From: Minisyncoccia bacterium
GTDB taxonomy: Bacteria; Patescibacteriota; Minisyncoccia; Moranbacterales; GCA-2747515
Length of the DNA stretch: 64,000 nucleotides
Assembly (NCBI GenBank): GCA_041738235.1
Contig: JBGSQF010000018.1
Location: 1,404-65,403 of the forward strand
Reading direction: 5' to 3'
The notes beneath the pieces are model-generated. The model was given only the letters and a program-made list of their open reading frames with translations, searched no databases and had not been told where the DNA came from. Both the position numbers and the translations under genes were made by a program. This document shows, piece by piece, positions 13,529-38,672 of this stretch (its first letter is position 1; every line of letters begins with the position of its first letter).

Positions 13529-14659
13529 ATGGCACTCCAACCGATCGACACGCTGAAGGATGTTCTTCAAAAGACAAAAAAGCCACTGATCATCTTACCG
13601 GAGCATCCAAACGGGGATGTTGTTTCTTCTGCATGGGCATTCTCCGCATATCTTGACGGTAAAGGGGTCATCTCTACGGTGGCAGTCTCTGATCCGTACA
13701 ATAAAAAGGCGCGTTTTAACTTTTTGCCTGCACCAGGAAATATACTCTCATCCCTTGCTGGATCGAAAAACTTTGTATTGGTCTTTGATACGACCAATAA
13801 TGCCATCTCTAATGTGCGTACAGAGCGAAGAGATAATGAGCTTCGTATCACGCTCACCCCGGAGAAGGGATCGATCGATCCTCGAGATTTTTCTTTTATA
13901 CCGGCACAGCTGAAATATGATCTTATCATTACTTTGGGCTGTACGGAAAAGGAGTCGATCGGGAAACTCTATGAAGAAAGCGCTGACATCTTTTATGAGA
14001 TTCCTGTAGTGAATATCGATTGTCAGAGTACTAATGATGGATTTGGTCAGATCAATATTGTGGATATTACTGCGTCGAGCGTTTCGGAGATCGTGGCGAC
14101 GACATTGGTGGCGATCGATGATACGGGAGTGACCAAAGATGTGGCACAGTGTCTTTTGGCGGGGATCATCAGTGCAACCGATAGCTTTCAACAAAAGAAC
14201 ACTACACCGAACTCTTTCTATCTCTCCGCACAGCTTATCGAGCGAGGGGCTAATCAACAGGATATCGTCAAACATTTGTACAAAACGCAACCTCTGGGAC
14301 TTATCAAGCTTTGGGGACGCATTATGGCGAAGTTGCAGTGGGATGAGTCGATAGGGCTTGTGTGGGCACAAGTAACGATCGAGGATTTTGTACAAAGTCG
14401 TATGCATCCCAACGACCTCCCCACGATCCTCGAGAAGATCAAATCGAACTATGCGTCAGGAAAGATATTTCTCCTTATGTATGAACAAAAGTCGGGATCA
14501 ACGGTGGGTATTGTAAAGCTTTCCAGCTCCAACGCACTGGCGAAAAAACTTGATTCTTTTGGATACGTTTCTCGTGGTGAGTACGGCGAGGTACGATTTG
14601 AGGGTGTGGGACGAGACGAAGCGGAAAAAAAGGTCCTTGAGGCGCTCCGATCCGAGTAA
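13529..14659 (+). CDS. DHH-family (NrnA-like) phosphoesterase fold protein, catalytic motifs not evident
   Basis: 376 aa. The N-terminus ILPEHPNGDVVSSAWAFSAYL resembles the NrnA motif I region, and the size and overall pattern fit. I do not see the DHH or GGGH motifs (LIITLGCTE sits where DHH is expected). Confidence 0.4.
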   Translation: MALQPIDTLKDVLQKTKKPLIILPEHPNGDVVSSAWAFSAYLDGKGVISTVAVSDPYNKKARFNFLPAPGNILSSLAGSKNFVLVFDTTNNAISNVRTERRDNELRITLTPEKGSIDPRDFSFIPAQLKYDLIITLGCTEKESIGKLYEESADIFYEIPVVNIDCQSTNDGFGQINIVDITASSVSEIVATTLVAIDDTGVTKDVAQCLLAGIISATDSFQQKNTTPNSFYLSAQLIERGANQQDIVKHLYKTQPLGLIKLWGRIMAKLQWDESIGLVWAQVTIEDFVQSRMHPNDLPTILEKIKSNYASGKIFLLMYEQKSGSTVGIVKLSSSNALAKKLDSFGYVSRGEYGEVRFEGVGRDEAEKKVLEALRSE

Positions 14660-14683
14660 AAGAATATGTTTGTATATAAAAAA

Positions 14684-14708
14684 ACCGGCCGAAAGGTCGT
14701 TTTTTGTT
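14684..14708 (+). terminator. intrinsic terminator
   Basis: CGGCC-gaaa-GGUCG hairpin with a GAAA tetraloop and one G-U pair, followed by TTTTT(G)TTT. An A-tract lies upstream, so it may act bidirectionally. Confidence 0.45.
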
Positions 14709-14765
14709 TGGGGTGACGAGTTGTGGGTAGGGGCGTCGCGATGGACGCCCCCCCCAACAAAAAAG

Positions 14766-15140
14766 CTATGAGTTTTCGATCTGACCTATGCGGTAGGTCA
14801 AATAGGGTATGATCACCCTCTGAAAAAGCAACTTCTTTCCCCCGTAACGGCGGACAAAATTCAATACTCTCCCGATGATTGAATGATATGCTGTTGGGGG
14901 GAGATTTGCCCGGACGATCTTTGTCCCATCTTTTGTAAATTGTATATGGACCAAGAGGTCCCCGGATTCGGCTGTTAAAATCCGTTCCGTTTCGAAAAAA
15001 GGACTTCTTGCCGAAGAGGAAAAGACAAACAATTCCTCCAGAACCGACCAACTTGGGGCGCCTGGACAGCTTATGACGCTTATAGTCCCACGTCCCCATT
15101 TCGGGTAAAAGGTTCTTTTGAGAGTGAGGTTGGTACACAT
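14766..15140 (-). CDS. hypothetical protein
   Basis: 124-aa ORF with protein-like composition. The overlapping 240-aa ORF in another frame is Pro/Ser/Arg-rich and runs into the upstream gene. No family recognised. Confidence 0.25.
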   Translation of the reverse strand: MCTNLTLKRTFYPKWGRGTISVISCPGAPSWSVLEELFVFSSSARSPFFETERILTAESGDLLVHIQFTKDGTKIVRANLPPTAYHSIIGRVLNFVRRYGGKKLLFQRVIIPYLTYRIGQIENS

Positions 15141-15383
15141 GCTCGTAGAGTTTCACCCCGTTTGTTGCCATATCGCTCGGCGAGCGATATAAAAGAGTAC
15201 AAAAAAAACGACATTTGTCAATGGACGAAGAGGAGGCAGTCTTGTTTTTTCTTTTATACCCACGTAGACGGGAATGGACATAAAAGCATTGTTAAGTGTC
15301 AAGTGTTAAGCGCCCCCCTTTTCTTTATTTGTCTATTTGTAAAAAGTTTGTAATTTGTGGCAGATGAAGTACAATAAAATCAT

Positions 15384-18300
15384 ATGACCACACAAACACT
15401 CAACAAAAATATAACCAAAAGTGAAAAGGATCGATCGGAGAAGACCACAAAAACACTTTCGGCCATGCGGACCAGATCTGAGGAGGAGCATGCGCTAGGA
15501 TTGGCACTTGCGATGCGTTTGCCGTATATGGACTTGCATCTTATGCCGGTTGATGCGGATGATGTGTTAAATATGCCATTAGAGGACTCCAAGCGTTTGC
15601 TTGCGGGGGTGTTTGTAAAACGTGGAAGAAGTGTCCGGATCGGAGCGGTTGTTCCCGATAGTCCAGAGTTGGGGGAGTATATAGAACAGTTGGAAGAAAA
15701 AAAGGGTTGGTCCGTTGAGCTCTATGTTATTTCTCAGACTTCATTAGATAAACTCTGGGAACTGTATAGTAAGCGAAACCTTCTCGATAACTTGGATACG
15801 ATGAAGATCGATCTGGATCGCGAGGACTTGGAGAAATTCGAGGAGAACTTCGGGGATATTATCAAGCTCCGGGATCGGATGGAAGAACTACCTACATCTG
15901 AACTTATCGCTCTTGTTTTTTCGGGCGCGATCAAAATGAAGGCAAGTGATATCCACTTTGAGGTGAACGAAAATGATGTTCGGATGCGATATCGTTTGGA
16001 CGGGGTATTGAATGATATTGGAAGTTTTCCTTTACGATCCTATAAGCTGGTTGTTTCGCGTATCAAAATGATGTCGAAACTCAAGCTGAACGTTCGATCT
16101 CGCGCTCAGGATGGACACTTCTCTTTGTCTGCGGATGAAAACAAAGGGTCTGGAAGGATCGATGTTCGTGTGAGCATTATCCCGAGTCGATATGGAGAGA
16201 GTATTGTGATGAGAATTTTGCGACAGGATTCTATTTTGCTTGGTGTTGAGGATCTCGGTCTTCGTGGTCGTGCGTACGAACGACTTCAAGAAGCGATCGG
16301 ACAGACCAATGGAATGGTCCTTACAACAGGTCCGACAGGTTCTGGAAAGACCACCACGCTGTATGCGATCATTAACAAACTTAACAAGTCGGACATCAAG
16401 ATCATCACCATAGAAAATCCGGTTGAATACGAGATAGCAGGCATTTCGCAGACGGAGGTAACTAAAGAGGGGTATGACTTTTCGCAAGGACTTCGTGCAA
16501 TCGTTCGTCAAGACCCAGATGTTATATTAGTGGGGGAGATCCGGGACGATGAGACGGCATCAGTTGCGGTCAATGCGGCACTTACCGGGCACCTGGTGCT
16601 TTCTACGGTGCACACCAATAACGCCGTTGACACTATTCCACGTTTGGTGGAACTGGGTGTAAAACCCTCTCTGATCGGTCCTTCTATTAATGTAGCTATT
16701 GCGCAACGGTTGGTCAGGCGACTGTGTACACATTGTCGAGAAACCTATGTTCCTGCGAAAGATACGATACAGATGCTGCAAAAGATATTGGCGGTCATTT
16801 CACCAAAGGCGGGGGTGGTGATCCCATCAAAGATCGAAACGTTGTATCGTGCCAAGGGATGTGCTAAGTGCAACAATATTGGGTACTCCGGACAGGTGGG
16901 TATATTTGAGGTGCTTGGCATGTCTGATGAGATACAAAAACTCATTGATGCGATGCGTCCGCACGGGGAGATCTTAAAAGTGGCGGTAGAAGAGGGAATG
17001 GTGGCGATGGAACAAGATGGGATCCTTAAAGCCATAGAGGGAGAGACATCCATTGAGGAGGTATGGCGCGTGGCAGGTGAGGGAGATTTCCTGAAGGAGC
17101 TGTATGAAGAGTTGATGCAGCAGACATTAGGCAGGGCACTCTTGCTTTCACATGAGATTCTTGACGATGTGGAACAAAATGCAAAAACAAAGGAACTTTT
17201 TGCTGAACATATCAAAAATGTTCCCGTAGAGAAGTTGCTTCCTTTCATATTTTCCGGTGCATTGCTTTTTGATGCGGGGGATATTCATATTGAACCTGCT
17301 AAAGATAGTTTTTCCGTTCGATTCCGTATTGATGGCATCCTCCAAACTATGGCCGAGCTTCCCCGAACACAATATCCGGGTCTGTTGGGAGAAGTAAAGG
17401 TTTTGAGCGGGCTGAAGTCACAGGCAGTGGCCGGCACAGCCGATAGTCGATTTTCGATCCAGAAAGAGGGACTAGAGGATCAACCCGGAGAAGGATCAGT
17501 GGATATCCGTGTTTCTATTTTGATGGGGGGGTATGGAGAGACAGTGGTGTTGCGACTACTGAATACTGCAGCAGTAGCTCTCGATCTTGAAAAATTGGGT
17601 ATCCGTGAGCAAAATCTTAAAAAGATCAAAAAACAGATGAGTCGGCCGAATGGATTTTTCTGTAATACGGGACCAACTGGTTCCGGAAAGACGACCACGT
17701 TGTATAGCATCTTGAAGATCCTTAATTCTCCAGATATAAAGATCATGACCGTTGAAGATCCGATCGAGTATCGGCTTGACGGCATCTTGCAAACACAGGT
17801 TAACGCTGAGGAAGGATACACATTTTCAAATGCTCTTCGTACGCTTCTTAGACAAAATCCAGATATTATTATGATCGGAGAGATCCGAGATGACGAGACG
17901 GCCCAGATCGCTGCTCAGGCGGCTCTTACAGGACACTTTGTACTTTCTACGCTTCATACAAATAACGCCATAGGGTCTATCCAGCGACTTCTGAATGTCG
18001 GAGTCAGTCCCGACAATCTTGCAGAACTGGCCAATGGATTTATGGCTCAACGACTTATTCGTGTGCTTTGTGAGTGTAAGAGAGAAAAAGAGGCAACGGA
18101 GGAAGAGAAAAAACGACTGACGGATGTTTTGAAAACCATTTCTAGTCAGTCAGGTGTTGTTGTTCCTCCGGTAGGGAAGATCTATGAACCGGGAGGTTGT
18201 GAAAAATGTCGGGGACTGGGGTACCGTGGGAGAAGTGTTATCAGTGAAGTGCTGACCGTTGATGGGAGCATTCAGGAACTTATTGCGCAAAGAGCGTTGA

Positions 18301-18422
18301 GCAGTGAGATAGAAAAGAAGGCTATAGAAGAAGGAATGATAACTATGCAACAGGACGGTGCTCTCAAAGTTGTGGAAGGCGTTACGAGCATAGAAGAAGT
18401 GGCGAGAGTAACAGAGTTTTAG
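15384..18422 (+). CDS. pilB: type IV pilus/T2SS assembly ATPase with two fused PilB/GspE ATPase units
   Basis: 1012 aa in a single ORF. It has a GspE_N-like N1 domain. Two complete N2+ATPase units follow, each with Walker A GPTGSGKTTT, Walker B/Asp box (ILVGEIRD, IMIGEIRD), His box (TGHLVLSTVHTNNA, TGHFVLSTLHTNNA) and a tetra-Cys motif. Confidence 0.8.
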   Translation: MTTQTLNKNITKSEKDRSEKTTKTLSAMRTRSEEEHALGLALAMRLPYMDLHLMPVDADDVLNMPLEDSKRLLAGVFVKRGRSVRIGAVVPDSPELGEYIEQLEEKKGWSVELYVISQTSLDKLWELYSKRNLLDNLDTMKIDLDREDLEKFEENFGDIIKLRDRMEELPTSELIALVFSGAIKMKASDIHFEVNENDVRMRYRLDGVLNDIGSFPLRSYKLVVSRIKMMSKLKLNVRSRAQDGHFSLSADENKGSGRIDVRVSIIPSRYGESIVMRILRQDSILLGVEDLGLRGRAYERLQEAIGQTNGMVLTTGPTGSGKTTTLYAIINKLNKSDIKIITIENPVEYEIAGISQTEVTKEGYDFSQGLRAIVRQDPDVILVGEIRDDETASVAVNAALTGHLVLSTVHTNNAVDTIPRLVELGVKPSLIGPSINVAIAQRLVRRLCTHCRETYVPAKDTIQMLQKILAVISPKAGVVIPSKIETLYRAKGCAKCNNIGYSGQVGIFEVLGMSDEIQKLIDAMRPHGEILKVAVEEGMVAMEQDGILKAIEGETSIEEVWRVAGEGDFLKELYEELMQQTLGRALLLSHEILDDVEQNAKTKELFAEHIKNVPVEKLLPFIFSGALLFDAGDIHIEPAKDSFSVRFRIDGILQTMAELPRTQYPGLLGEVKVLSGLKSQAVAGTADSRFSIQKEGLEDQPGEGSVDIRVSILMGGYGETVVLRLLNTAAVALDLEKLGIREQNLKKIKKQMSRPNGFFCNTGPTGSGKTTTLYSILKILNSPDIKIMTVEDPIEYRLDGILQTQVNAEEGYTFSNALRTLLRQNPDIIMIGEIRDDETAQIAAQAALTGHFVLSTLHTNNAIGSIQRLLNVGVSPDNLAELANGFMAQRLIRVLCECKREKEATEEEKKRLTDVLKTISSQSGVVVPPVGKIYEPGGCEKCRGLGYRGRSVISEVLTVDGSIQELIAQRALSSEIEKKAIEEGMITMQQDGALKVVEGVTSIEEVARVTEF

Positions 18423-20974: not shown

Positions 20975-23848
20975 TCAATCATCGAGCAGGAGCATAAGGA
21001 ATAGGTCATCTTCTTCCTTTTGCGTCATGGGAGGCGGATCAGGGTTTGGTTGAGTCGGGACAGACACCTCGATACCACCTTCTTCGAGACAGTTGTTTCC
21101 GTTGTTTGTCTCTACGAGATTTGCGGTAACGCAGGTCTTCAACGTGTACATCCCTTCTTGCAAAGGAGCCGTTGCGTTGAGAGATATTTGTGTTTGCGCT
21201 CCGCTTGGCAGATTGCCTGCCGAGATGGTGGTGCTTCCCATGGTGTACTGTGTTCCACCAGTATGGATAAGCGTTGAGGTAACGGTTGCGTCATTGGGAA
21301 TGCCGCTTCCGTAATTGTGAACGACACTCTGAACCGTGAAGTTGCTTCCGGTATCGAGCGCGTAAGAGCCATCAATCCCCGTAGCTGTAATGGCGAGGTC
21401 ATAGGAAGGTGGTGGAGGTGGAGGTGGAGGTGGAGGAGCATCTATCTCGTAGCAGAGGTAGTTGTCATCCCACGTATGCGGGTCGGAAGGTTCACTCCAT
21501 TGCACGCACTGTTTCCCGCTTAACGGTCCCGCACTGCCCCATGAGAAATGCACGGGACTTTCCGTCGGCACGCACAGATAGTTGTCGTTCCATGAGTCAG
21601 AGTCAGCCGATTCGCTTATCTGTGTACACCGCATGCCACCAATCGGACCAGCACTACTCCATTGAATGCCATACTCCTTTGTGGAGCAGAAGTAGTTATC
21701 GCTCCAGGCATCAGGATCAGCACTTTCCGCTATCTGCGTGCAGTGGGCACCACTTACCGGACCAGCGTACGACCACACGAAAGATCCATCCGGACTCGTG
21801 GGGAAGTTCGTGACCGTAAATCCCATCACTTGGCAGTTGTTTCCCTCATTCAGCTCCGGCTCATCTCCCTGATAGTCGGCGCAGCATTGGTACGTGCGAC
21901 TGCCTACGTCCCCAAGTCTGAATCCATCGATCATGTGCTCCATCTTTGTGTACCCAACCCTAAGGTCGGATGCATCCAGCCCATCGTCTCCACGATAGTT
22001 ATCTTGGTTGACGTAGTATGCCAGACGATTTCCATTTTGGACATTGCGGTTTCCCTGATTCTTTACCTCGCAGAACGGGTGTACGATTGAGTCTTTCGGA
22101 ATGAAAGTCCCTGGCGTCACAGTCTGTCCTGCGTCTGTTTCGAGGTAGAGATTCGAGACGACGAGATCGCTTTTGTACGGCATGACGTTGAGCGTCATAC
22201 TCTTACAGTTGTTCCCCTCGTTCATCTCTGGCACATCATTTCCGGTGTCTACGCAACAAGTGTAAACCCTGTTGCCTGTATCTCCCAATTTCCATTTGCT
22301 AAACACCGACTCCGTAGTTGTGCTCCCTACAGGAGGCTCACCTGAGTCAAGGTGATCATAGTCCCTTACTTCCCCGTCCATCTTATGTTCAACTGCAATC
22401 CCGATGGGACTGCTTATGCTTCCCTGACTCCCAATCACGCAACGAGGGATCCACTCCTGGTCCTCGATAGCGGTGGCGCCGTCGTAGTAGGCTGTTCCAC
22501 TTTCATCCGTCATATAGACCTGAGAAACGACAAAATCCGGTTTGAGGTTGGATATGGCATAGTGTTTCTCTTCGCTCGTGTTATACTCATCTGTCTCGAC
22601 CACCTTGTTAGTACAGTCGATCTTAACCCGGAAGTCGAGCGTAGAGTAACCCTCAGGAACAGTATAGGTTTTGGTCTCCGAGAGATCCATTCGCCCTTCG
22701 TCCAGCTTGGCGATGTGGATTTGGCCTTGCGCCCACTGAATCCATTCTCCATTGTCCAGTTCTGCGTAATAGCAAATCTGGATATACTCCGATCCATCGG
22801 GGTTCCAGTTGCCCGCATCACCTTCATCCGCCCAGACGTGGGCTTTGACATCGATCTTCATACCAGGAATCGCCGGTCGTGAAGTATTCCATTTCTCCCC
22901 ATCCTTTCCGTAGTAGTCAACGTCGTACTTAAGGTCGACGGGGGAATCGGGGTTGGAAATATTGTCAGTTGGTTCTCCCTCCTCCGGCGGATATCGATTT
23001 CCACTCCCAACAATGGGAACTTCCGTTGCTCCGATAACGCCACAGAACTCCGCTTGAGCAGTCGATACCCCAAGAGCGGACAAGAACATGCTCGCCACTC
23101 TGTCGCCCATTGACTGGTCAACGGACGTGAAGCACGCTCCTTCCGGCGGATTGCAGACGTAGCTATCCGCCTTGTTGTCCCAACATACACCTTTCTTACC
23201 CGTTGGATAAGCCTTGAAAAGCCTGTGGCTATCGGTTTCCAACACATAATGCTGGAACTGGTTGATCCACGGGATAGTGTCCACAACGGGATCGACAATT
23301 CCTGCCACCCAGAGATAGTCCAGATCAATGGTAAGTTGGATGTTTGAAACAACATCCACACCATCTTCCGGAAGATTCTCCTTGAAGTAGAAGAAGACGT
23401 AGTAGTCGGTCTCTGCTTCCAGGTTCTGCGGAAGAAGCACGTGTGCGGCATGGACGACGGAATTGTTTGGATTGGTCCAATAATCCAAGACTTCCGTATC
23501 GCGTCCTACCTGCGAGTTAGACGGAAATGTCGTCTCGATCCGATCCAACTCGATATAGCGATGATCTCCTTTTAGGACCGCTTCAACTTCGATGCCGAAG
23601 TCATGTGTCTGCAGAATTTGGATCGCTTCATCGTCAAAACGAAGTCGCGTAGCGATCGTATTGCCGTAAGCGATGGTTCTGCCTTTGTGGGATGACCATT
23701 CCTTCAATGAATCATCGGGATCATACTCATCCAAATACCAGTCCGCGATGCACGAAGCCTCGGTAATAGGAATGAGTCCTATGAGGCAGGCGGCATAACT
23801 GTGCGGGATGCACAGAATGCCAAGCAAAAAAGCGATAGCGTATCGCAC
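20975..23848 (-). CDS. large secreted surface protein with CARDB-like domains, three Trp-rich mini-repeats and a poly-Pro linker
   Basis: 957 aa with signal peptide MRYAIAFLLGILCIPHSYAA. E-x-NE-x-NN motifs (VPEMNEGNNC, EPELNEGNNC, ETNNGNNC) match the CARDB pattern. Three tandem ~35-aa W..AGP..G..C.Q..E..D...W.DNYLC repeats and a P12 linker are present. Confidence 0.65.
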   Translation of the reverse strand: MRYAIAFLLGILCIPHSYAACLIGLIPITEASCIADWYLDEYDPDDSLKEWSSHKGRTIAYGNTIATRLRFDDEAIQILQTHDFGIEVEAVLKGDHRYIELDRIETTFPSNSQVGRDTEVLDYWTNPNNSVVHAAHVLLPQNLEAETDYYVFFYFKENLPEDGVDVVSNIQLTIDLDYLWVAGIVDPVVDTIPWINQFQHYVLETDSHRLFKAYPTGKKGVCWDNKADSYVCNPPEGACFTSVDQSMGDRVASMFLSALGVSTAQAEFCGVIGATEVPIVGSGNRYPPEEGEPTDNISNPDSPVDLKYDVDYYGKDGEKWNTSRPAIPGMKIDVKAHVWADEGDAGNWNPDGSEYIQICYYAELDNGEWIQWAQGQIHIAKLDEGRMDLSETKTYTVPEGYSTLDFRVKIDCTNKVVETDEYNTSEEKHYAISNLKPDFVVSQVYMTDESGTAYYDGATAIEDQEWIPRCVIGSQGSISSPIGIAVEHKMDGEVRDYDHLDSGEPPVGSTTTESVFSKWKLGDTGNRVYTCCVDTGNDVPEMNEGNNCKSMTLNVMPYKSDLVVSNLYLETDAGQTVTPGTFIPKDSIVHPFCEVKNQGNRNVQNGNRLAYYVNQDNYRGDDGLDASDLRVGYTKMEHMIDGFRLGDVGSRTYQCCADYQGDEPELNEGNNCQVMGFTVTNFPTSPDGSFVWSYAGPVSGAHCTQIAESADPDAWSDNYFCSTKEYGIQWSSAGPIGGMRCTQISESADSDSWNDNYLCVPTESPVHFSWGSAGPLSGKQCVQWSEPSDPHTWDDNYLCYEIDAPPPPPPPPPPSYDLAITATGIDGSYALDTGSNFTVQSVVHNYGSGIPNDATVTSTLIHTGGTQYTMGSTTISAGNLPSGAQTQISLNATAPLQEGMYTLKTCVTANLVETNNGNNCLEEGGIEVSVPTQPNPDPPPMTQKEEDDLFLMLLLDD
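21409..21438. repeat. (GGTGGA)n hexanucleotide tandem repeat encoding the poly-Pro linker
   Basis: Five tandem GGTGGA units inside the 20975..23848 gene, giving PPPPPPPPPP on the minus strand. Confidence 0.7.
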
Positions 23849-30572: not shown

Positions 30573-30647
30573 TCCGGCGTGGCGCAGCGGTAGCGCAGGG
30601 GACTGTTAATCCCTTGGTCGTAGGTTCGAATCCTACCGCCGGAGCCA
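30573..30647 (+). tRNA. tRNA-Asn (anticodon GTT)
   Basis: Acceptor stem TCCGGCG/CGCCGGA. D-arm GCGC-AGCGGTA-GCGC. Anticodon stem GGGGA/TCCCT with loop CTGTTAA. T-arm GTAGG-TTCGAAT-CCTAC. CCA is encoded. Confidence 0.8.
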
Positions 30648-30756
30648 AGAAAAAACCACCTCCATTTTGGGGGTGGTTTTTCTTTGCTCTCCGTCGAGTA
30701 GGATGAGAAGTTTATACTCGGTAGCGTAGCGGACGGGTAAATCCTACCGCCGGAGC
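30640..30756. repeat. left 117-bp direct repeat (attL-like)
   Basis: Identical to 50075..50191. It begins in the last 8 nt of tRNA-Asn and ends with ATCCTACCGCCGGAGC, a copy of the tRNA 3' end. Confidence 0.85.
30654..30685 (+). terminator. intrinsic terminator after tRNA-Asn (inside the left direct repeat)
   Basis: AACCACCTCC-atttt-GGGGGTGGTT stem followed by TTTTTCTTT. Confidence 0.5.
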
Positions 30757-32348
30757 ATTTCAGGACAACGAGCCCAAAAAGGCTCGTTTTCCATTTTTAT
30801 AGAGCCATTTTTAGCGGTTCGAACACGCTCATTTTCTCGAGACAGGATTTTTTGCATTTTTTGAAATTGCGGATACGGTTTTTCCATTGTATAAGCGACT
30901 TTTCCGTCTTTTACGGAGAGGTTCGAACAAATCGTCCGCAATACCTCTTTTTTGCGCGCGGGATTCTTGGTTTGCGAAAAAGCGTCCCGTGCCGTCACCG
31001 CGAAATCGAAGGCGCGTTCCGTTTCGGTGATCCAATCGTCCATACTGCCGTCGATATTTTCCATCACTTTTTGCAATCGATTTTTTTCTTTTGACAGCGT
31101 TTCTTTTTTGATGCGAAATTCTTCTTCCGTTATCTCTCCGCCCGCCCGCATATCGATGATCGCGTCGATTTTCTTGCAACACCAATCATGCGCGCTCCGC
31201 TGATTGACCAACAAGGATTCCCGCATACCCGACTCCTCCCGATTTTCTTTTGCAATAATGCCCATCGCCCACTTGGCAAAGTCCGAAGGAAGGGCGACCG
31301 ATTCGACGATATTCGCCATCTGTCCCGCAAGGTCTTTTTCGTGCACCACACTTTGAGCGCATTTCGGAATACCTTTCTTTTTGACGCAGTGGTAATGCGT
31401 GTACAAACGCACCACCCCGTTTTTTTGCACTTTTCTCCGATACTCCGCTGTCATTGTTTGCCCGCATTCCCCGCATACCATAAGTCCCGTAAAGGGGAAA
31501 AGGTGTTTTTGCCTTCGGTCTTTCATTTTCCGCCCCAAAATAACTTGGATCTTTTCGTGTTCCTGTTTTGTGATCATCGGCGTATGCGCCCCTTTGTACC
31601 AATTCCCGCTCCCTTCGGGATATTCGAATTCCCCGTAAAAAAACGGATCGCTGAGCATATCGTACCACGCGGAGCGCGAAAGCGGTTTGCCGTTTTCTTT
31701 TCGAAGCCCCCATTCGTTCGTCGCGATTTCCAATACGCGAGATGCCGACTGCTCGCAAGAAAGCACTATTCGAAACATCTTTTGCACAAGAGGGAACGCC
31801 GTTTCGTCGGTTATAATCGTTTTAAATCCCTTTGCCTTGTCGGGCGTGTTTCTATAGCCCACGCGCGTTGTTCCCGGATGCCACCCCATTTCCGCCTTTC
31901 GCTTGAGTCCGCGCTTTACGTCCACGCCCTTGTTATCGTTTTCGAGTTTGGCCTGCGAACAAAACAGATTGAGCAGAAATTTGTCGTTCGGATCGTTTCG
32001 AAAAATTTGATTTATAGTGCGGACTTCCGAAAGTTTTCCCCGATCCATCAAGTCGATAATCGTTCCCGCATCGCCCGCGTTTCTCGAAAGCCGGTTGATA
32101 TTCCAAAGCAGTATCGCGTCGGCCTCTCTCTTTTCGATGCGATCGATCATTTTGTTGAAAAGGGGTCTCGCTCCGCGCGCTTTGGCGCTGTGCGACTCGC
32201 GGACGATTTCAACGACATTCATTCCGTCCGAAGCGATTACGGGGCGCAATTCCGCCTCTTGCGACTCAATGGACAGTGCCTGCCGATCCTCCGCCTCGCT
32301 CGACTTTCGAAGGTACACGATAAACCGCAAAGCATTTTTGGGAAGCAT
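30744..32348 (-). CDS. large serine recombinase
   Basis: 534 aa. Resolvase-type N-terminus (FIVYLRKSSEAEDRQALSIESQ), recombinase domain, zinc ribbon (CGECGQ...YHCVKKKGIPKC) and a coiled-coil C-terminus. The stop codon lies within the att core copy. Confidence 0.8.
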   Translation of the reverse strand: MLPKNALRFIVYLRKSSEAEDRQALSIESQEAELRPVIASDGMNVVEIVRESHSAKARGARPLFNKMIDRIEKREADAILLWNINRLSRNAGDAGTIIDLMDRGKLSEVRTINQIFRNDPNDKFLLNLFCSQAKLENDNKGVDVKRGLKRKAEMGWHPGTTRVGYRNTPDKAKGFKTIITDETAFPLVQKMFRIVLSCEQSASRVLEIATNEWGLRKENGKPLSRSAWYDMLSDPFFYGEFEYPEGSGNWYKGAHTPMITKQEHEKIQVILGRKMKDRRQKHLFPFTGLMVCGECGQTMTAEYRRKVQKNGVVRLYTHYHCVKKKGIPKCAQSVVHEKDLAGQMANIVESVALPSDFAKWAMGIIAKENREESGMRESLLVNQRSAHDWCCKKIDAIIDMRAGGEITEEEFRIKKETLSKEKNRLQKVMENIDGSMDDWITETERAFDFAVTARDAFSQTKNPARKKEVLRTICSNLSVKDGKVAYTMEKPYPQFQKMQKILSRENERVRTAKNGSIKMENEPFWARCPEMLRR

Positions 32349-32512
32349 AGAAATGTAAATATAAATGGATTAATGAGAATACCAAAAGGGGACGACCCCG
32401 GCTTACCCAACGCACCACGAATGATTTGTCGGCGGAATCGCCCCCTTTTGGAGACAAGAAAATTCGCAGTATCGCGGAGGGTAAGCATTTTTAGTATACC
32501 GAATTTTCAGAA

Positions 32513-33184
32513 TTATTTCAAGCAATCAAATCTCCGTGCCATACGGAAAAACGACTGTTCGAGCGAGTGTTCTTTTTTGAGGTAGGCGCGGTATTTCCGT
32601 GTCGGTTTTCCGCGATAGAAATACCGTCCGATTTTTTTCTCGCTTTCTTCCAAATCGGGGATCGTATACGCGTATCCGCAAATGCGCGAATCGTACGTCA
32701 ATTCGAGGCAGTGCCGGCACGCAAAATACGAACACCCTCCGCCCAGATACAATTTTGCGACTCTTCGTCCGCAGTAGATGCCGTTTTTGAGAATCGAACA
32801 TCGGAAAAAATACCGCCTCCCTCCGTATCGGCAGGGGAGGGAGACAATGGGATATTTTTGGCTTATTTCTCTCTTCTCCCCCGTTTGCCAATCGGTGACG
32901 GTGTAGTTGAGTTTCAAATACGACTCTTCCCCGTCCTCCCCGATGTTGATTGTATATCCGACACTGTTTTTTCTTTCGCTCCATCCGCTCGTCCACGTAA
33001 CCGTACCCGAAGCATACCCGACCAAAGATCCCCATCGCTTGAAATCGTAGATGCTTATCGTATGGCATTCTTCTTTTTGCAGTTTTCCCATATAACCGAA
33101 ATAATTAAAGATTGATACCGTTTCCCACCGAATCCCCGAATATGTCCAAAGCGTCTTCAAACAGTTGATCCGGTTTCGTTTCAT
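32513..33184 (-). CDS. Cys-rich (zinc-ribbon-like) hypothetical protein
   Basis: 223 aa with paired CxxC-type spacing (CRYGGRRYFFRC, CGRRV, CSYFACRHC). No family recognised. It overlaps the 3' end of the upstream ORF by ~80 nt, so the start is uncertain. Confidence 0.3.
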   Translation of the reverse strand: MKRNRINCLKTLWTYSGIRWETVSIFNYFGYMGKLQKEECHTISIYDFKRWGSLVGYASGTVTWTSGWSERKNSVGYTINIGEDGEESYLKLNYTVTDWQTGEKREISQKYPIVSLPCRYGGRRYFFRCSILKNGIYCGRRVAKLYLGGGCSYFACRHCLELTYDSRICGYAYTIPDLEESEKKIGRYFYRGKPTRKYRAYLKKEHSLEQSFFRMARRFDCLK

Positions 33185-35360
33185 TTTTTACCCCACCCCC
33201 GCTCTCACGATTGTTTTCCGTTTCCTCGTCCCTTCCCGCGCACGGATAGATAAGTATCTTTCTTTTGTCCGAAGGATCGCGCTCTTGTTCCACCAATCCC
33301 GACGCTTCCAAAGGCGGGAGAATTTGTTGCCTGAAACGCCAATCTTCGAGAAAGCGTCCGTGCACTTCTTGATACTTTTTCAAAATCTCGTGCTTCCCAA
33401 GTCCCACGACAACGCTCAAACCCTCGTTTTTCTTTTGGAAGGCGGGGAGGATCACCGTTTTGTACACTTCGTACACGTACGGCGAGAGATTATACTCTTG
33501 GCTTTCGGAAATCGCTCCCCACAAAGAGACGGCTTCCCGCAAATCGTCCCCGTTTGCCGTGAGACAATTTCCGTTTCGTTTGCGAAACCACACGTTAAGG
33601 AGCGCAAACATCCGCACAAAGGCGATAAACCGCGCGATATCTCTCTGATGGCGCGGTTTGAGATGCGCCTTGCCCTCCAAAAAAATCTTTTCGATCTCTT
33701 CGGGAGAAGACAACATAATTTCGCCAATGTGTTCGTTCCGTATCGCCAAAAGGCGATCCATAAGAAGCGACCGCGCTGGATTTTCGTCGAGGATTTTTTG
33801 GTACGCCTCCGGATCGGTCTCGCGCAAAATCTTTTCGTGAATGCCAGCGCGCACCTTTTCGGGATCAGCTTCGGGAGAAAGCAAAAGAAATCGCGTCCCT
33901 TCCTGTTCGTCAATGAGAATCCCCGCACTGCAAAAAATGACCGCGGGAAATCCCTTGATAAAAATCGTTTTCGTTCGCATTCCGCTCTTTTGGCTTTTGT
34001 CCGTAATCTTGACTGTCATCTCTTTTTTGTCGTGAGAAAGAAGCGGGCGAAGCCGTTCCAAAAGTTGCGTATGCGGTTGATCGAGAAAAATCAAAATCTT
34101 TCGCGACAAATCGATCTCGATTCCGCCCCGTTCCTTGTTGTACACGCCCGCATCGTGAAAAAACGAAGTGGGGGAGCAATACCCGATTTCGATCACGTCC
34201 TCCGGGGGAAACAATTTTGCAATCTCCGTCGGGATGTAACTCTTTCCGGTGGAAGAGGGCGCATTCAAACTGATGTTTATTTGCGCCGATTCCGTATACG
34301 CCGAGAGTTCGCACAAAAACGTCGCCAATTTGTTGGAGTCGTCCTTTTTGATAGTAAGTCCCAACACGTCGAGAAGTTCTTTTGAGCCGATCGGAGAAAA
34401 TCGCGAAACGTCAATCGGCTCTTTTCCCCCCGCAAACGTCGCGAGGGCACGTAATTCCTCCGCGCTTCCTCCGCAGTCACCGAAATAGTTTGAGATGTCG
34501 CTTCCCTTGGGGAGCACCTCCGGCAACTCCGCCCGAAAGACGCTCGTTTGCGGAAGTTCTTCCGACAAGAGCGCAATCACCCGATCTGTGCCTTTCTGTC
34601 CCGCCTCGTCATTGTCAAAACACACCACAACGCGGGAAACCCGTACGAACGCCTCCGCCCATTCCCGCTTAAACGTACCCGCGCCCGCCGTCGAAGTCAC
34701 GGCGCAAAATCCCTTTTGGGACAACATCATCTGATCGAATTCCCCCTCGCAAATCCACACCTCGCCCGCCTCCGCGATGGACTCCTTTCCGTACAAAGAC
34801 GCTCCCGATCCGGTGGGATAAAACTTGTACTTGTCGGGATTCGTTTCTTCCTCCGCGGGGTCTCGGCGCAATTTGAGAAACGCCCATCCCCCCGTATCGT
34901 TGGGAACGGGAATCGTGATCCAATTTTTCCGGTAGAAACGGCCATACCCGATCTTTTGCTTCTCGATTGTTTCGTCCGTGATGCCCCGACCGTTGAGATA
35001 CGTCCGAATTCGCTCCGGTACACTCTCCGCGCACCGTTCCGCCACGCTCCCGTCGAATCGCGCGGGACTTTTGCGTGTCGTGACCTTCTCGCCCCCGATC
35101 GGACTCCGCGCCACGTCGCCGGGCGTATCTCCCAACGCCTTGGCAAGGGTAAAGATATTTCCCGACGCATTGCATTTCTTGCAATGATATTGCCCTGTCT
35201 CGCTTGAAAGATATAAATGCCCCTCTGCGCCCCGACTGTCCTTGTCGCATGCGCCGAACAAACACTTTGCGATAAGTTCCCCGTTGCTTTCTTTGAATGC
35301 GATACCTTTTTTCTCCAAATACTCCCGAATCGTTATCGTTTCCATACTGTTTTTTTGCAT
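33105..35360 (-). CDS. primase with P-loop NTPase domain (CHC2 Zn finger + TOPRIM + Walker-A domain)
   Basis: 751 aa. Zn finger CLFGAC...HCKKCNASGN. TOPRIM VWICEGEFDQMMLSQKGF and VVCFDNDEAGQKG. Downstream Walker A LNAPSSTGKSY. Confidence 0.7.
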   Translation of the reverse strand: MQKNSMETITIREYLEKKGIAFKESNGELIAKCLFGACDKDSRGAEGHLYLSSETGQYHCKKCNASGNIFTLAKALGDTPGDVARSPIGGEKVTTRKSPARFDGSVAERCAESVPERIRTYLNGRGITDETIEKQKIGYGRFYRKNWITIPVPNDTGGWAFLKLRRDPAEEETNPDKYKFYPTGSGASLYGKESIAEAGEVWICEGEFDQMMLSQKGFCAVTSTAGAGTFKREWAEAFVRVSRVVVCFDNDEAGQKGTDRVIALLSEELPQTSVFRAELPEVLPKGSDISNYFGDCGGSAEELRALATFAGGKEPIDVSRFSPIGSKELLDVLGLTIKKDDSNKLATFLCELSAYTESAQINISLNAPSSTGKSYIPTEIAKLFPPEDVIEIGYCSPTSFFHDAGVYNKERGGIEIDLSRKILIFLDQPHTQLLERLRPLLSHDKKEMTVKITDKSQKSGMRTKTIFIKGFPAVIFCSAGILIDEQEGTRFLLLSPEADPEKVRAGIHEKILRETDPEAYQKILDENPARSLLMDRLLAIRNEHIGEIMLSSPEEIEKIFLEGKAHLKPRHQRDIARFIAFVRMFALLNVWFRKRNGNCLTANGDDLREAVSLWGAISESQEYNLSPYVYEVYKTVILPAFQKKNEGLSVVVGLGKHEILKKYQEVHGRFLEDWRFRQQILPPLEASGLVEQERDPSDKRKILIYPCAGRDEETENNRESGGGVKNETKPDQLFEDALDIFGDSVGNGINL

Positions 35361-35392
35361 ACGCTGTGTAAATAATAATGTGAATTAAATGC

Positions 35393-35602
35393 TTACTTTT
35401 CCGATATTTCCCCCAACCCCCGCAAAATTGCCTCCCGATCTCCTTCGTCGTACTCTTCCGCATCAACCAGTGCAGTAAACGCCTTCCGAATCTCCTTTGC
35501 TCCGATGCCCCGTCCCGTGATCGCCTGCGCAAAGCACGCGTAACTCGAAAGCCCGGGATTTCTTTCCGCAATCTCCTCAAACCGCTGGTGTATTGTTTTC
35601 AT
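35393..35602 (-). CDS. small hypothetical protein
   Basis: 69 aa. Overlaps the upstream small ORF by 26 nt. Confidence 0.25.
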   Translation of the reverse strand: MKTIHQRFEEIAERNPGLSSYACFAQAITGRGIGAKEIRKAFTALVDAEEYDEGDREAILRGLGEISEK

Positions 35603-35768
35603 AGTGTTGTATTTTTTCTTGAATGTTTTCCCGCTCCGTCTCCCGAACGACCCGCACCAAACGCACGACCCTCTCGCCCGCCTCCCGCGCCTCCTCGTCG
35701 CTTAAAACGACCCCGAAACGGTTTTGGTACAGCGTCTTGAACGTTTGAATGTCGGCGTTGTCGAGCAT
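35577..35768 (-). CDS. small hypothetical protein
   Basis: 63 aa, acidic and Arg-rich. Confidence 0.25.
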   Translation of the reverse strand: MLDNADIQTFKTLYQNRFGVVLSDEEAREAGERVVRLVRVVRETERENIQEKIQHYENNTPAV

Positions 35769-35774
35769 ACGAAA

Positions 35775-36101
35775 TTATCGGTAAATTTGATTTTTGAGCG
35801 ACCGCAAATTATCCGCAAATGTTCGCGCCCGCACCTCGAGCCGATTGAGAAAATACCGCTGTGCCATAAGTTCGATGTCCTCCTTTACGAAAAACACGAA
35901 CACGCAATTTTTCGGATCGCTCTTGTCAATCCGTTTGATCGCGTACCCCGCCGGAACCGACAAAAGCGCGCTCGCGCAATGAATGTCCCGAATCACAAAA
36001 ACCCCCTCCTCCTCCCTTTCTTTTTTCTCCTCTTCTCTCTCCCCGCAAGCATCTTTTCGCATAGGCGTAATGCTAATGATTATTGGGTGAAAAAAATTCA
36101 C
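35775..36101 (-). CDS. hypothetical protein
   Basis: 108-aa ORF in the element's G+C-rich module. Confidence 0.3.
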   Translation of the reverse strand: MNFFHPIIISITPMRKDACGEREEEKKEREEEGVFVIRDIHCASALLSVPAGYAIKRIDKSDPKNCVFVFFVKEDIELMAQRYFLNRLEVRARTFADNLRSLKNQIYR

Positions 36102-36251
36102 CTATATCTATCGCACAAGTCCTTTTTGGAGCGTGTCAAGAGATATGCTTAAAAATGCAAAAAAATCCCTAAAATAAGGGATTTTTTTTGAAAAAAAGAG
36201 TGTTATGGAGGACTTCCCGCATTTCCCGGGAAGCGTGCCGGGAAGTGTTTT

Positions 36252-37250
36252 TTAGGGGAGAGCGTCGGGACTGATTCGGTATTCGTTTATTTTTCCGTTT
36301 TTCCTTGTTTGTATGATTTCCAGTCCGATCTTTTCGGCTATGGCGCAAATGATCGAACGTTCGTTTGAGACGGTTTTTTGCTCGACACCCATTCTTTGCG
36401 CCAGATCTTTTCTTGTATGCCAAACATTCCTACTCCCTTTTCCTTCGTGATGCAGAAAAGCGAGAATATTATGAGCCGTTTCGGTTATTTCTTCCTTTTG
36501 TCGGTATATTCCAACCGCGTCCCCGTCCCACAAAATCGCGCGCTTTTCAAGCGACGCAAACCCGTTTTTTCCGAGAGGAATCCCGTCCTTTTCCGATGGC
36601 CGTCCCGTATGACCGAAAAACTTTCGGAAAAGAGTTTTGTCGAAAATCGCATTTTTATTTTTGGAAAGAATTTTGTCGAGTGCAATGCACAAGACATCCC
36701 CATCGATTTTTCGCGCCGGAGCAAAAGGCAAGAAAATGACCGCTCTTTCACTTGATTGTTGGGCGAGATCGATTGCCTTGCTTGTGTCAAACGCGTCCGC
36801 GTTTCGCGCGAAGAAAAACATGCGCGATTCCCCCGCAAGAAAATGCGACCCGAGCGACCATGTCTTTTCCGAAATCGAAGCCCGACCGCCGATTCCGAGA
36901 TCGCCCAAAAGACGCAAGAGCAATGCCTCGACATCGATCCGCCACTCTTTCGTCTCATTTTTCTCGATAAATTGAAACCGTGTCGAACCGCACTCGTTGC
37001 AAAAAATACACAATTTTCTAAATTTTTCCAATATCTCGCATGGCGTATGGCAATTATGGCACGGCGCATTTTGTGCCTTTCTCTCATACAGAATTCTTGC
37101 TTTAATCGCCCGCGCAATTTCTTTCTCAAAAGGAAAAACGGACTCCCAAGATAAAGAGGGAGATTCGTTTTCAACTGCGAGAAGTATTTTATGCATCAAA
37201 TCCTTCATCGATTCCCGTGTCTTTAAGAATACGGCACGCTTTTTTCTCAA
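36252..37250 (-). CDS. hypothetical protein (Cys cluster; possible C-terminal HTH)
   Basis: 332 aa. A CHNCHTPC...CIFCNECG cluster. The C-terminus KDLAQRMGVEQKTVSNERSIICAIAEKIG is HTH-like. Confidence 0.4.
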   Translation of the reverse strand: MRKKRAVFLKTRESMKDLMHKILLAVENESPSLSWESVFPFEKEIARAIKARILYERKAQNAPCHNCHTPCEILEKFRKLCIFCNECGSTRFQFIEKNETKEWRIDVEALLLRLLGDLGIGGRASISEKTWSLGSHFLAGESRMFFFARNADAFDTSKAIDLAQQSSERAVIFLPFAPARKIDGDVLCIALDKILSKNKNAIFDKTLFRKFFGHTGRPSEKDGIPLGKNGFASLEKRAILWDGDAVGIYRQKEEITETAHNILAFLHHEGKGSRNVWHTRKDLAQRMGVEQKTVSNERSIICAIAEKIGLEIIQTRKNGKINEYRISPDALP

Positions 37251-38379
37251 ACTCGTCGATCATGCCGAGGTCGCATTTATCGACCCAATCAATGAAGAAA
37301 GAAATCGCTTTGATTCCCCCCTTTGCCTCTTGGCTTTTGAAGCGAAACGAGAAACACGCGCGGTCTATGTAAATTTCTTTATTATTGAGAGCCTTTTGCA
37401 ATCCCAAAGAGTGAGCCATTGTTTTGATGCCATCCGCCCCTGTACTTTTTTTGTCGTTTGGAGGCATGGAGAGAACAACCCTTTTTCCCGTGTTGGTATA
37501 CCGCAAATGAAGCGACCGTAACAACCACGAATCCAAATCGGGAACATTGTCCGCGTTTATTTCGAAATCGTTTTTCATAATAAGGCGCAAATTGTGTTTC
37601 GGGCGCGCTTTCTCGAGAGGGATGCCGAACACCGTTTCGAGGAACACGTTCAGATATTCGTCCCGTGCTTGCCATGATCCTTTTGCTTTGACGTGCAACT
37701 CATTTTCTTTGGGGAGATAGAGAAAATAGATTGCGTCGAGCGCGCGAAAGATCGCCAAGCGGTCCGGCTTGCCACTCTTGTCCATTTGCGTGCACACCTG
37801 CGGATGATCGTCGAACGAAATCGTCGCGCAGGAGTCCTCTTCTATTTTTCGTACATCCACCCAGCATGTTTTGCCTCTTCCTTCTCCTTGGAACATTGAT
37901 TGAAACGCTTCTTTTAAGATTGTTTTTTTGCTTTCCATTATTGATATTGTCGTTTTTGGAACGGGATATCGTTTCCATCCTGAAAGGTCTTGAAACTCCA
38001 AAATCGCCATCGCTTCTTCGAAAACGTCTTCCCTTTCGAGATAATAAAAAAGCGCGCGGTCGCGCATGCTGTAATTGAGACATCTCGAGTCGTCAACGGG
38101 AATGTTGAAATCGCGAATAATGCCTTGAATAGTGGCTACGCCCCGATAATTGCCGAGTATGTCCACTGCAGTAAGTCCGTCCTCCGCTTTTTTTCGGTCA
38201 TCTTCGTCAAGGGAATTGAAAAAATCAAGGATTCTTTCGGAAATAAGTTTTTTTTCTTTTTTATTGGTGACCCTTGGAACATTTGAAGGAAATCCGGTTA
38301 TTTTTCTTGAATCGAAAAAACGCTTGAGAAGATCTGTTTCCTTGACGGAATGAAAAAATACGGGAGGAACAAACGCCAT
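37189..38379 (-). CDS. hypothetical protein
   Basis: 396 aa. No family recognised. Confidence 0.4.
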   Translation of the reverse strand: MAFVPPVFFHSVKETDLLKRFFDSRKITGFPSNVPRVTNKKEKKLISERILDFFNSLDEDDRKKAEDGLTAVDILGNYRGVATIQGIIRDFNIPVDDSRCLNYSMRDRALFYYLEREDVFEEAMAILEFQDLSGWKRYPVPKTTISIMESKKTILKEAFQSMFQGEGRGKTCWVDVRKIEEDSCATISFDDHPQVCTQMDKSGKPDRLAIFRALDAIYFLYLPKENELHVKAKGSWQARDEYLNVFLETVFGIPLEKARPKHNLRLIMKNDFEINADNVPDLDSWLLRSLHLRYTNTGKRVVLSMPPNDKKSTGADGIKTMAHSLGLQKALNNKEIYIDRACFSFRFKSQEAKGGIKAISFFIDWVDKCDLGMIDEFEKKACRILKDTGIDEGFDA

Positions 38380-38445
38380 ACCTCTTTTGTCTTAATTTGA
38401 ATTATAATGTACAATAATGGTATCAAATAGCATTAAATAAATCAA

Positions 38446-38658
38446 ATGGAAAAAGAGCCCAAAGAGAGTCAAAAGATACCGGAACTTCTCACTCTCAAAG
38501 AAGCGTGTGAGATTTTGAAGTGTCATCCCAATACCCTCCGGCAATGGGACAAAAAGGGCATCCTCCCGGCCATACGAATAGGGGAGCGGAAGGCGAGAAG
38601 ATACAAGAAAGATGCTATACTGAAAATGCTTGAAGGGGAAAATAATTTTCCAAAATAA
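38446..38658 (+). CDS. excisionase-family (HTH_17/MerR-like) DNA-binding protein
   Basis: [45 protein letters not shown] matches the excisionase-family HTH pattern. Confidence 0.55.
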
Positions 38659-38672
38659 ATTTTGAGAACACT

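Follow-up and report, generated by a model that had tools for sequence, protein, structure and literature searches.

Sequence evidence for a lineage-conserved tandem duplication within a PilB/GspE-type ATPase gene of Patescibacteria

The open reading frame and its domain layout

We analysed a 64,000-nt stretch of DNA (the window) from a Minisyncoccia bacterium (assembly GCA_041738235.1, contig JBGSQF010000018.1, positions 1,404 to 65,403 of the forward strand), and in it an open reading frame (ORF) for a tandem PilB/GspE-type ATPase ('PilBB'; Table 1). The ORF is uninterrupted and encodes 1012 amino acids (aa); its ATG is the first start codon past the upstream stop. The Pfam profile T2SSE (PF00437) matched two stretches of the protein (730 bits against a 24.9-bit cut-off, E = 4e-220). 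The layout is N1-[N2a-CTDa]-linker of ~50 aa-[N2b-CTDb]; i.e. each chain has a single N1-like domain and two units, each composed of an N2 domain and a RecA-like C-terminal domain (CTD). A preliminary description, made from the sequence alone, had claimed N1 and two full ATPase units in one uninterrupted 1012-aa ORF, and this is borne out by the ORF list, the two Pfam matches and the positions of the motifs. Walker A (GPTGSGKT) lies at aa 316 in unit 1 and aa 763 in unit 2, GEIRD at aa 384 and aa 832, and TGH at aa 401 and aa 849. The cysteine pairs are C448-xx-C451 (CTHC) and C493-xx-C496 (CAKC) in unit 1, and C896-x-C898 and C939-xx-C942 (CEKC) in unit 2, the first pair of unit 2 having an atypical spacing. 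The motif list in the preliminary description (Walker A, GEIRD, TGH/His box, CTHC and CAKC of unit 1, CEKC of unit 2) needs correction only at this pair, which was given as CxxC and is CxC.

The N1 region has four invariant residues (E34, Y48, D50 and P55; invariance was judged in a 67-sequence alignment), and AlphaFold2 (AF2) modelled it with a predicted local distance difference test score (pLDDT) of 80-90. Full-length alignments to PilB models and structures cover aa 6-130. The N1 profile PF05157 reported no match to the window protein at E <= 0.01 and gave weak matches to relatives and to a single-unit orthologue (locus L010, introduced below). The MshEN motifs for cyclic di-GMP (RLGxxLLxxGLI...; PMC5013675) are not evident in the sequence of the window protein.

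When the two halves of the protein (~aa 120-565 and aa 566-1012) were aligned with each other they were 42% identical over 443 aa (E = 7e-118), with the alignment beginning at aa 122 of unit 1. From this extent, the duplicated module is the linker helix together with N2 and the CTD; the inter-unit linker holds a conserved amphipathic helix (F569, L570, Y574, L577 and M578 are invariant) that is a paralogue of the helix preceding the N2 domain of unit 1. At the DNA level the halves match by 67.7% at best, over 322 nt, and no exact 12-mer occurs in both. With 42% identity in protein and at most 68% in DNA, the duplication is an old one, neither recent nor collapsed. An internal translation start at the invariant M578 seems unlikely: the preceding codons (consensus YEKLM) hold no family-conserved Shine-Dalgarno sequence, and the conserved residues fit an amphipathic helix.

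The assignment to the PilB/GspE type, also made in the preliminary description, is upheld by matches in the PDB, which have E-values of 1e-101 to 1e-88 for PilB, GspE and PilF against ~1e-32 for PilT. Taken per unit, the protein resembles the PilBs of Geobacter metallireducens (5TSG, 5TSH and 6OLJ) and Myxococcus (3JC8), with E = 3e-101, ~43% identity and a target-normalised template modelling score (TM-score) of 0.87-0.91. It has in common with them the order of an N1-like domain followed by N2 and CTD, the catalytic and communication residues and the tetracysteine motif. The best structural match of unit 2 is Thermus thermophilus PilF (5IT5, 5OIU, 6EJF and 6F8L; TM-score 0.92, E = 1e-88). 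PilT/PilU retraction ATPases are ~350-400 aa long and have neither N1 nor the tetracysteine motif of PilB/GspE. Such an ATPase was rejected on the E-values (~1e-32 for PilT, 1e-101 for PilB) and on the presence of the cysteine motif and an N1-like domain; since neither unit is PilT-like, the protein is not a PilB-PilT fusion. The NCBIfam models for GspE (TIGR02533, 877 bits against a cut-off of 630) and PilB (TIGR02538, 836 against 676) were both exceeded because the scores of the two units add up, and NCBIfam has no model for the double. In the full-length AF2 model (mean pLDDT 79.9), each unit superposes on the PilF/PilB cores with a target-normalised TM-score of up to 0.92. The AAA-family Pfam matches are short P-loop matches of 20-34 bits around Walker A; with a fold of the PilB/PilF-core kind, membership of the type II AAA+ proteins was rejected and the resemblance to them is an analogy. 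All solved relatives have one unit per polypeptide; with two units per chain, we file the protein as a variant of the PilB/GspE family.

Table 1. Features of the PilBB locus (window coordinates; amino acid ranges are approximate)
Feature	Position	Strand	Basis or remark
Tandem PilB/GspE-type ATPase gene ('PilBB')	15384..18422	+	ORF list; Pfam T2SSE twice; NCBIfam GspE and PilB equivalog models exceeded
Single N1 domain (GSPII/T2SSE_N-like), ~aa 30-130	15471..15773	+	M. xanthus PilB alignment, aa 11-560; TIGR02538, aa 6-564
Flexible N1-N2 linker, ~aa 131-167	15774..15884	+	pLDDT < 50 for aa 132-163
Unit 1 N2, ~aa 168-290; Arg fingers R262/R277; H245 at nt 16116-16118	15885..16253	+	Alignment to 5TSG; residue roles from PMC5424180
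Unit 1 RecA-like CTD, ~aa 291-565; Walker A at nt 16329-16352	16254..17078	+	Motifs, invariant columns, mapping to G. metallireducens PilB, fold match
Inter-unit linker, ~aa 566-614	17079..17225	+	Invariant columns; pLDDT < 50 for aa 570-583
Unit 2 N2, ~aa 615-737; Arg fingers R709/R724; R689 at nt 17448-17450	17226..17594	+	Alignment to 5TSG, invariant columns
Unit 2 RecA-like CTD, ~aa 738-1012; Walker A at nt 17670-17693	17595..18419	+	Motifs; best PDB matches of aa 616-1007 are Thermus PilF cores, E = 1e-88
Promoter-like site TTGTAA-16-TACAAT, ending 9 nt before the start codon	15348..15375	+	Consensus scan only; number of such sites not above shuffled expectation
G+C-rich hairpin, 54 nt past the stop codon	18476..18497		T-run on the minus strand, hence poor as a terminator for the plus strand
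DHH-family phosphoesterase gene, 376 aa, upstream	13529..14659	+	Pfam DHH 26.9 bits (cut-off 28.1); weak NrnA similarity
Terminator-like hairpin after the DHH gene	14686-14699		Within the DHH-pilB spacer
124-aa ORF, unannotated, without a Pfam match	14766-15140	-	Within the DHH-pilB spacer

Conservation of both units and recurrence of the tandem

A word-indexed search returned 120 clusters (90%-identity) that are 55-79% identical to the query and cover 98-100% of it. All but one of these (119/120) are 980-1047 aa long (mostly ~1005-1020 aa) and carry exactly two Walker A motifs; their sources are NCBI, JGI, ENA and Logan assemblies from many samples. When 1.84 billion representatives were searched exhaustively with HMMER (54,247 hits at E <= 1e-3), ~14 further full-length doubles were listed at 39-48% identity, beyond which the list consists of ordinary single-unit proteins of 550-600 aa. 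Source names, where given, place the doubles in Candidatus Moranbacteria, the Parcubacteria group, Candidatus Paceibacterota or Moraniibacteriota. A protein identical to that of the window is also present on an independent Logan assembly contig (run SRR28170474). Four further proteins (P0130, P0141, P0145 and P0158) are fragments of doubles, and four 'long single' proteins (P0155, P0191, P0243 and P0266) were rejected as degenerate doubles, their tails being low-complexity or coiled-coil instead. GTDB genomes were also scanned with the family alignment, which gives a sample of matches and no census; among the matches listed, those with long spans, in Planctomycetota, Acidobacteriota, Aciditerrimonas and other groups, were not fusions, being separate adjacent genes or long N-termini.

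The preliminary description raised the concern of a tandem-duplication artefact. Such an error (a duplicate that was collapsed or chimeric, or a neighbouring pair of pilB genes merged by a sequencing frameshift) has a plausible starting point in the separate side-by-side pilB-pilB pairs that do exist (L091, below), but its probability is now negligible: the same uninterrupted two-unit ORF recurs in at least 119 close and ~14 distant clusters (>130 independent clusters with this architecture) from four independent data sources, the linker has invariant residues, the identical protein stands in a second assembly, and units this diverged could be neither looped nor collapsed by an assembler, which cannot make a diverged second copy. 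By these comparisons, we are dealing with a genuine, lineage-conserved tandem duplication within a gene for an extension-type ATPase.

Conservation is spread evenly across the duplicated module, with mean column conservation in the 119 clusters of 0.82 for the first N2, 0.85 for the first CTD, 0.80 for the second N2 and 0.80 for the second CTD. At 94 aligned unit positions the residue is at least 95% conserved and the same in both units; 11 positions are fixed but different (e.g. D377/N825 and S188/G632). On this pattern both units are under purifying selection.

We mapped the functional residues of G. metallireducens PilB (GmPilB; McCallum et al., PMC5424180) onto the two units via the HMMER alignment to 5TSG, whose chain numbering is native + 20. 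Walker A T327 corresponds to T318 in unit 1 and T765 in unit 2; the Asp-box Glu E357 to E348 and E795; the catalytic Glu E395 of the atypical Walker B to E385 and E833; the Arg fingers R271 and R286 to R262 and R277 in unit 1, and to R709 and R724 in unit 2; T411/H413/H420 of the His-box region to T401/H403/H410 and T849/H851/H858; and the open-interface Arg R455 to R445 and R893. All of these are invariant in both units except T765, which is >=90% conserved. The Walker A lysines (K322 and K769) are invariant in both units, as are all eight cysteines of the tetracysteine motifs, a zinc motif predicted from sequence. By this mapping, neither unit lacks any of the residues that ATP binding, hydrolysis and communication between units are known to require.

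The two units differ at one further position. In GmPilB, R257 of the 'QDGR' motif bridges to E357 in the open, AMP-PNP-bound interface (PMC5424180). Its equivalent in unit 2, R689, is Arg in 119/119 clusters. In unit 1 the equivalent position 245 is His in 104 clusters, Gln in nine, Ser in five and Ala in one, and never Arg. Most single-unit relatives (15/18) have Arg here, and the more divergent group of doubles retains it in unit 1, which makes the loss from unit 1 a derived asymmetry fixed in the main family. With the Arg lost from one unit and always kept in the other, the two kinds of ATP site are probably not kinetically equivalent. The earlier view that both units appear catalytically intact is borne out for the conserved motifs, with the qualification that the units are not fully equivalent.

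Tandems appear to have arisen more than once. In a bootstrapped neighbour-joining tree of the units, in which the deep nodes have bootstrap values of 0-66, the two units of one and the same protein pair with each other in P0134 (100/100; 73% identical), P0131 (100/100; 56% identical) and P0143 (93/100). P0134 and P0131 lie in the same PolA/TsaE/RuvB neighbourhood as the main family and have different inter-unit linkers. The pairing of their own units together with the different linkers points to independent duplications or, less likely, extensive gene conversion. The main family and the P0124 group have a common linker motif, G-x-x-[DR]-[FY]-[LI]-x-E-L-Y, which suggests that both stem from one duplication event. 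P0143 (1047 aa; L089:8001-11144, GCA_964384625.1, CAYLNH010000035.1) has an N-terminal region like the platform protein (T2SSF) followed by two T2SSE units. It comes directly after an extracytoplasmic function (ECF) sigma/anti-sigma pair, with sulfatase, MoxR and BatA in a context that is clearly not like that of the candidate phyla radiation (CPR). Judged by sequence and context, P0143 is an independent invention with a soluble platform-like domain attached. An unfused counterpart of the tandem is found in a high-GC organism, in which two separate single-unit pilB-like genes overlap slightly (L091:2848-6193, OGXN01000001.1).

One protein, P0002 (L003:10001-14383; JGI 3300022698, contig Ga0248662_100121), has 1460 aa and three complete T2SSE units, and, like the window gene, has DHH, pyruvate kinase and DnaG genes around it. 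The middle unit is mosaic in that a unit-2-type N2 part, which resembles unit 3 (54-77% identity), is joined to a unit-1-type C-terminal part (62-85% identity to unit 1), the pattern expected of unequal crossing-over within a double. No sign of a chimeric origin was seen: all four segments have 60-66% identity to one nearest double, P0035, and stretches of identical DNA between units reach at most 21 nt. P0002 is known from a single contig, and a metagenome scan gave no second three-unit example. The numbers of units per chain seen are thus one, two and, once, three, all of which divide six. This is in weak agreement with a single six-unit ring, the three-unit case being a singleton; the PilB/PilF-core fold of each unit likewise gives weak support.

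Gene neighbourhood and origin of the duplication

Every relative examined has a DHH gene directly upstream on the same strand (it precedes the PilB gene in L001-L005, L008-L011, L030, L031 and L075), with genes for RuvB, a bPH_2-domain protein, TsaE and PolA close by. The same neighbourhood surrounds a single-unit PilB. At locus L010 (Candidatus Paceibacterota RS_2_5, GTDB) the order is PolA-TsaE-DHH-PilB-TPR-RuvB-bPH, which is matched by the order PolA...TsaE...DHH-PilBB...RuvB...bPH at L001. The L010 PilB (569 aa) has the same order of N1, N2 and CTD and 46-50% identity (46% to the query), but one unit only; its DHH protein is the orthologue of that in the window (31% identity, E = 2e-68).

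Searches by tblastn with DHH, RuvB and TsaE gave ~18 Patescibacteria loci with single-unit PilBs in the RuvB/TsaE/DHH neighbourhood, under labels that include Doudna-, Giovannoni-, Nealson-, Wildermuth- and Staskawiczbacteria, Minisyncoccia and 'Saccharibacteria'. The order (PolA)-(TsaE)-(DHH)-PilB-RuvB(-RuvC) is found in L009-L011, L015, L017-L019, L024-L032, L034 and L075, without nearby pilus genes. The PilBs of L029-L032, L034 and L075 are only 433-450 aa from stop to stop and seemingly have no N1. To our knowledge, this class of RuvB-adjacent PilB paralogues is uncharacterised. A second class of Patescibacteria PilB adjoins PilT (L012, L020, L039, L043, L045 and L064) and is more distant from the query: the mean identity of units 1 and 2 is 0.50 and 0.465, respectively, to the RuvB-adjacent singles, against 0.459 and 0.437 to the PilT-linked PilBs.

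By position and sequence, the double is the positional orthologue of the widespread RuvB-adjacent single-unit PilB class, and arose by intragenic tandem duplication in place. It follows that the lack of nearby pilus genes is ancestral. The gene had been described as an orphan, and the scans of the window agree: there is no second T2SSE ORF (unit 2 compared by BLAST with all window ORFs), no prepilin-like G-x-[TSA]-[LIVMF]-x-E motif followed by a hydrophobic stretch (regular-expression scans) and no T2SSF, PilM/N/O or prepilin peptidase among 30 large ORFs (Pfam scans). A 6-kb Logan contig that runs beyond the window end has no pilus genes. The orphan state is, however, not peculiar to this gene, since it is a property of the RuvB-adjacent class as a whole. 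In studies of TM7x, pilB1 and pilB2 lie inside pilus loci (PMC12206443). An identity of the RuvB-adjacent PilB with TM7x pilB2 was considered and found unsupported, the 'Saccharibacteria' loci L025 and L028 having no pilC or pilM nearby.

The spacer between the DHH gene and pilB (14660-15383) is 725 nt in the window against ~90-180 nt in relatives. It contains a hairpin and a short minus-strand ORF (Table 1), and may represent a small inserted gene.

Elsewhere in the window, a tRNA-Asn gene (30573-30647) has a 17-nt exact repeat of its 3' end (30629-30645 and 30740-30756). Past it, the minus strand encodes a large serine recombinase (30744-32348); genes for a Toprim protein of 751 aa, an N6/N4 DNA methylase, a Schlafen/AlbA_2 protein and a ResIII helicase follow, and over ~30-38 kb the GC content is raised (0.48-0.52) and the GC skew is negative. 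From these features, 30573-45300 looks like an integrated mobile or defence element. The ORF at 58887-60434 has a strong full-length match to the cellulose biosynthesis protein BcsG, a phosphoethanolamine transferase (E = 2e-122), which seems unexpected for a reduced Patescibacteria genome. The ORF at 20975-23848 (minus strand) encodes a protein of 957 aa that looks secreted and has three CARDB domains, a ten-proline run and repeated Cys/Trp-rich modules, in a region of raised GC (~0.50).

Assembly and role of the tandem ATPase

Hexamers of PilB, GspE and PilT have in common a rigid packing of each subunit's N2 domain on the adjacent subunit's CTD; the nucleotide binds between the N2 and CTD of one and the same subunit (PMC5424180). 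The explanation that best covers our observations, and which we hold with some rather than strong confidence, is an in-place tandem duplication of PilB whose product trimerises into a six-unit ring and acts as a pilus-assembly motor with non-equivalent ATP sites. By analogy with the solved hexamers, three chains would form one PilB-like ring in which units 1 and 2 alternate; the N2:CTD packing contacts would then be of two classes, one intra-chain and one inter-chain. Driven by this ring, a PilC-type platform with its gene elsewhere in the genome would polymerise type IV pilins, for attachment to a host, for DNA uptake or for both. PilB, GspE and PilT are thought to be homohexamers whose six identical subunits take up ATP-bound, ADP-bound and empty states in a two-fold symmetric cycle (PMC5424180). 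In the proposed trimer, unequal sites in units 1 and 2 would give the ring a built-in three-fold alternation. Where opposite positions of a C2-symmetric PilB cycle are in the same state, those of a trimer of doubles would always comprise one unit 1 and one unit 2, and this may account for a need to keep both units fully competent. Type IV pili are important in Patescibacteria and central to the episymbiotic lifestyle (PMC9894109, PMC12206443), and it is from this importance and from family membership that we infer a role in pilus or pseudopilus assembly.

Several observations weigh against this explanation. ATPases of the PilB/GspE clade work with a PilC/GspF platform and prepilins, the genes for which are usually close by; neither the 64-kb window nor the 10 kb around the gene in relatives contains a PilC, PilM or pilin gene. 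The protein is tied to a pilus by family membership only, and the PolA/RuvB/RuvC/DHH neighbourhood is also compatible with a DNA-related role. The full-length AF2 monomer model has a predicted TM-score (pTM) of 0.45, with the relative placement of the units undefined. A model of the first CTD, the linker and the second N2 was too poor (pLDDT 58, pTM 0.39, from an 18-sequence alignment) to predict a packing unit within the chain. The Arg equivalent to R257 is lost in 3/18 single-unit relatives as well, and a second group of doubles keeps it in unit 1, so that its loss may be functionally minor.

Type II AAA+ proteins (ClpB, p97 and NSF) and engineered single-chain ClpX pseudohexamers also have several ATPase modules per chain, with ring positions that are non-equivalent. 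They belong to the AAA+ proteins, however, and not to the PilT-like/RecA-like T2SSE proteins, and their tandems either stack as rings or were engineered in the laboratory, so that the comparison is one of analogy only. If PilBB followed ClpB and p97, the chains would form hexamers with two tethered or stacked rings, 12 units in all, one of which would engage the platform while the other regulated it or added power. The ~50-residue linker, with its disordered stretch (pLDDT < 50, aa 570-583), could permit either topology; N1 precedes unit 1 only, which makes the units positionally distinct; and the 11 paralogue-specific fixed differences suggest specialisation. We nevertheless consider stacked rings unlikely. 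The packing of N2 on the neighbouring CTD in the solved hexamers (PMC5424180) makes units of the same ring the natural partners. Two and three units per chain both divide six. We know of no stacked double ring in the PilB/GspE/PilT family, which also counts against this topology.

A different role is also conceivable, in which the whole RuvB-adjacent PilB class, the double included, serves in DNA uptake or processing, as a ComGA-like competence pseudopilus or a DNA- or junction-directed ATPase, and is not a surface-pilus motor. The neighbourhood of PolA, TsaE, DHH, RuvB and RuvC is kept across many Patescibacteria without nearby pilC, pilM or pilT, the PilT-linked PilBs form a separate and more distant class, and a dependence on DNA uptake has been proposed for CPR bacteria (PMC9894109). 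The ComGA model (NF041000) scored 447 bits summed over the two units; this corresponds to ~224 bits per unit, below the 300-bit cut-off, and the best models are the PilB and GspE equivalogs. Pfam scans of the window ORFs found no comG-like neighbours. The neighbours that are present are housekeeping genes, the order of which may be conserved for reasons that are not necessarily functional, and a ComGA-like function would still be one of type IV filament assembly. Taken together, we think a DNA-directed role distinctly improbable.

Less probable still is that one unit is mainly regulatory or structural, as are the pseudo-catalytic partners in heteromeric ATPase rings, with the other alone hydrolysing ATP productively: unit 1 of the main family never has the Arg that unit 2 always has, and unit 2 evolves somewhat faster (mean identity 0.49 between copies of unit 2 vs 0.53 between copies of unit 1) and is farther from the single-unit relatives, but the Walker A Lys, Asp-box Glu, catalytic Glu, Arg fingers, His box and cysteine motif, which degenerate sites normally lose, are invariant in both.

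Whatever the topology, the architecture departs from that of known PilBs, which have one N2 and CTD per chain and form homohexamers; here there are two diverged units, one N1 for the two, and a gene unlinked to pilC, pilM and pilT. Internal duplication has enlarged another protein of the PilB family, Thermus PilF. Its duplicated parts are the N-terminal GSPII domains, and it has one ATPase unit, which fits its 913-aa chain; in the present protein the ATPase unit itself is duplicated. We found no mention of tandem T2SSE/PilB units in the open full-text literature (subscription journals fall outside this scope), including a 2024 PilB review, an MshEN survey and the Saccharibacteria pilus papers, and databases label the doubles only as 'GspE/PulE family protein' or 'PilB'. 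A natural 'covalent dimer' architecture of PilB, such as these ultra-small bacteria encode, has thus apparently not been described.

A broader proposal, which we offer as a doubtful one, is that nature has made a series of single-chain PilBs with one, two and once three units through recurrent tandems, that hard-wired non-equivalence of positions is tolerated by the six-unit ring or of benefit to it, and that the RuvB-adjacent class may serve a machine outside the pilus loci, e.g. for DNA uptake. If so, a ring of the three-unit form would have identical units at opposite positions, and a ring of the two-unit form never would.

The finding exposes a widespread PilB paralogue that adjoins RuvB, is unlinked to pilus genes and has been annotated under 'GspE/PulE family protein'. 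It also bears on mechanism. In a homohexamer any mutation is introduced at all six positions, which makes the cycle model difficult to test; two diverged, intact units per chain fix which ring positions are alike, and each type of site could be mutated separately. Engineered single-chain ClpX has allowed such separate mutation of sites for the AAA+ unfoldases. The double should be of moderate interest to specialists in secretion ATPases, and of more if its hard-wired asymmetry proves mechanistically informative: if units 1 and 2 have diverged kinetically (H245 vs R689), they would provide a ready-made system in which to test for a fixed rotary firing order in PilB motors.

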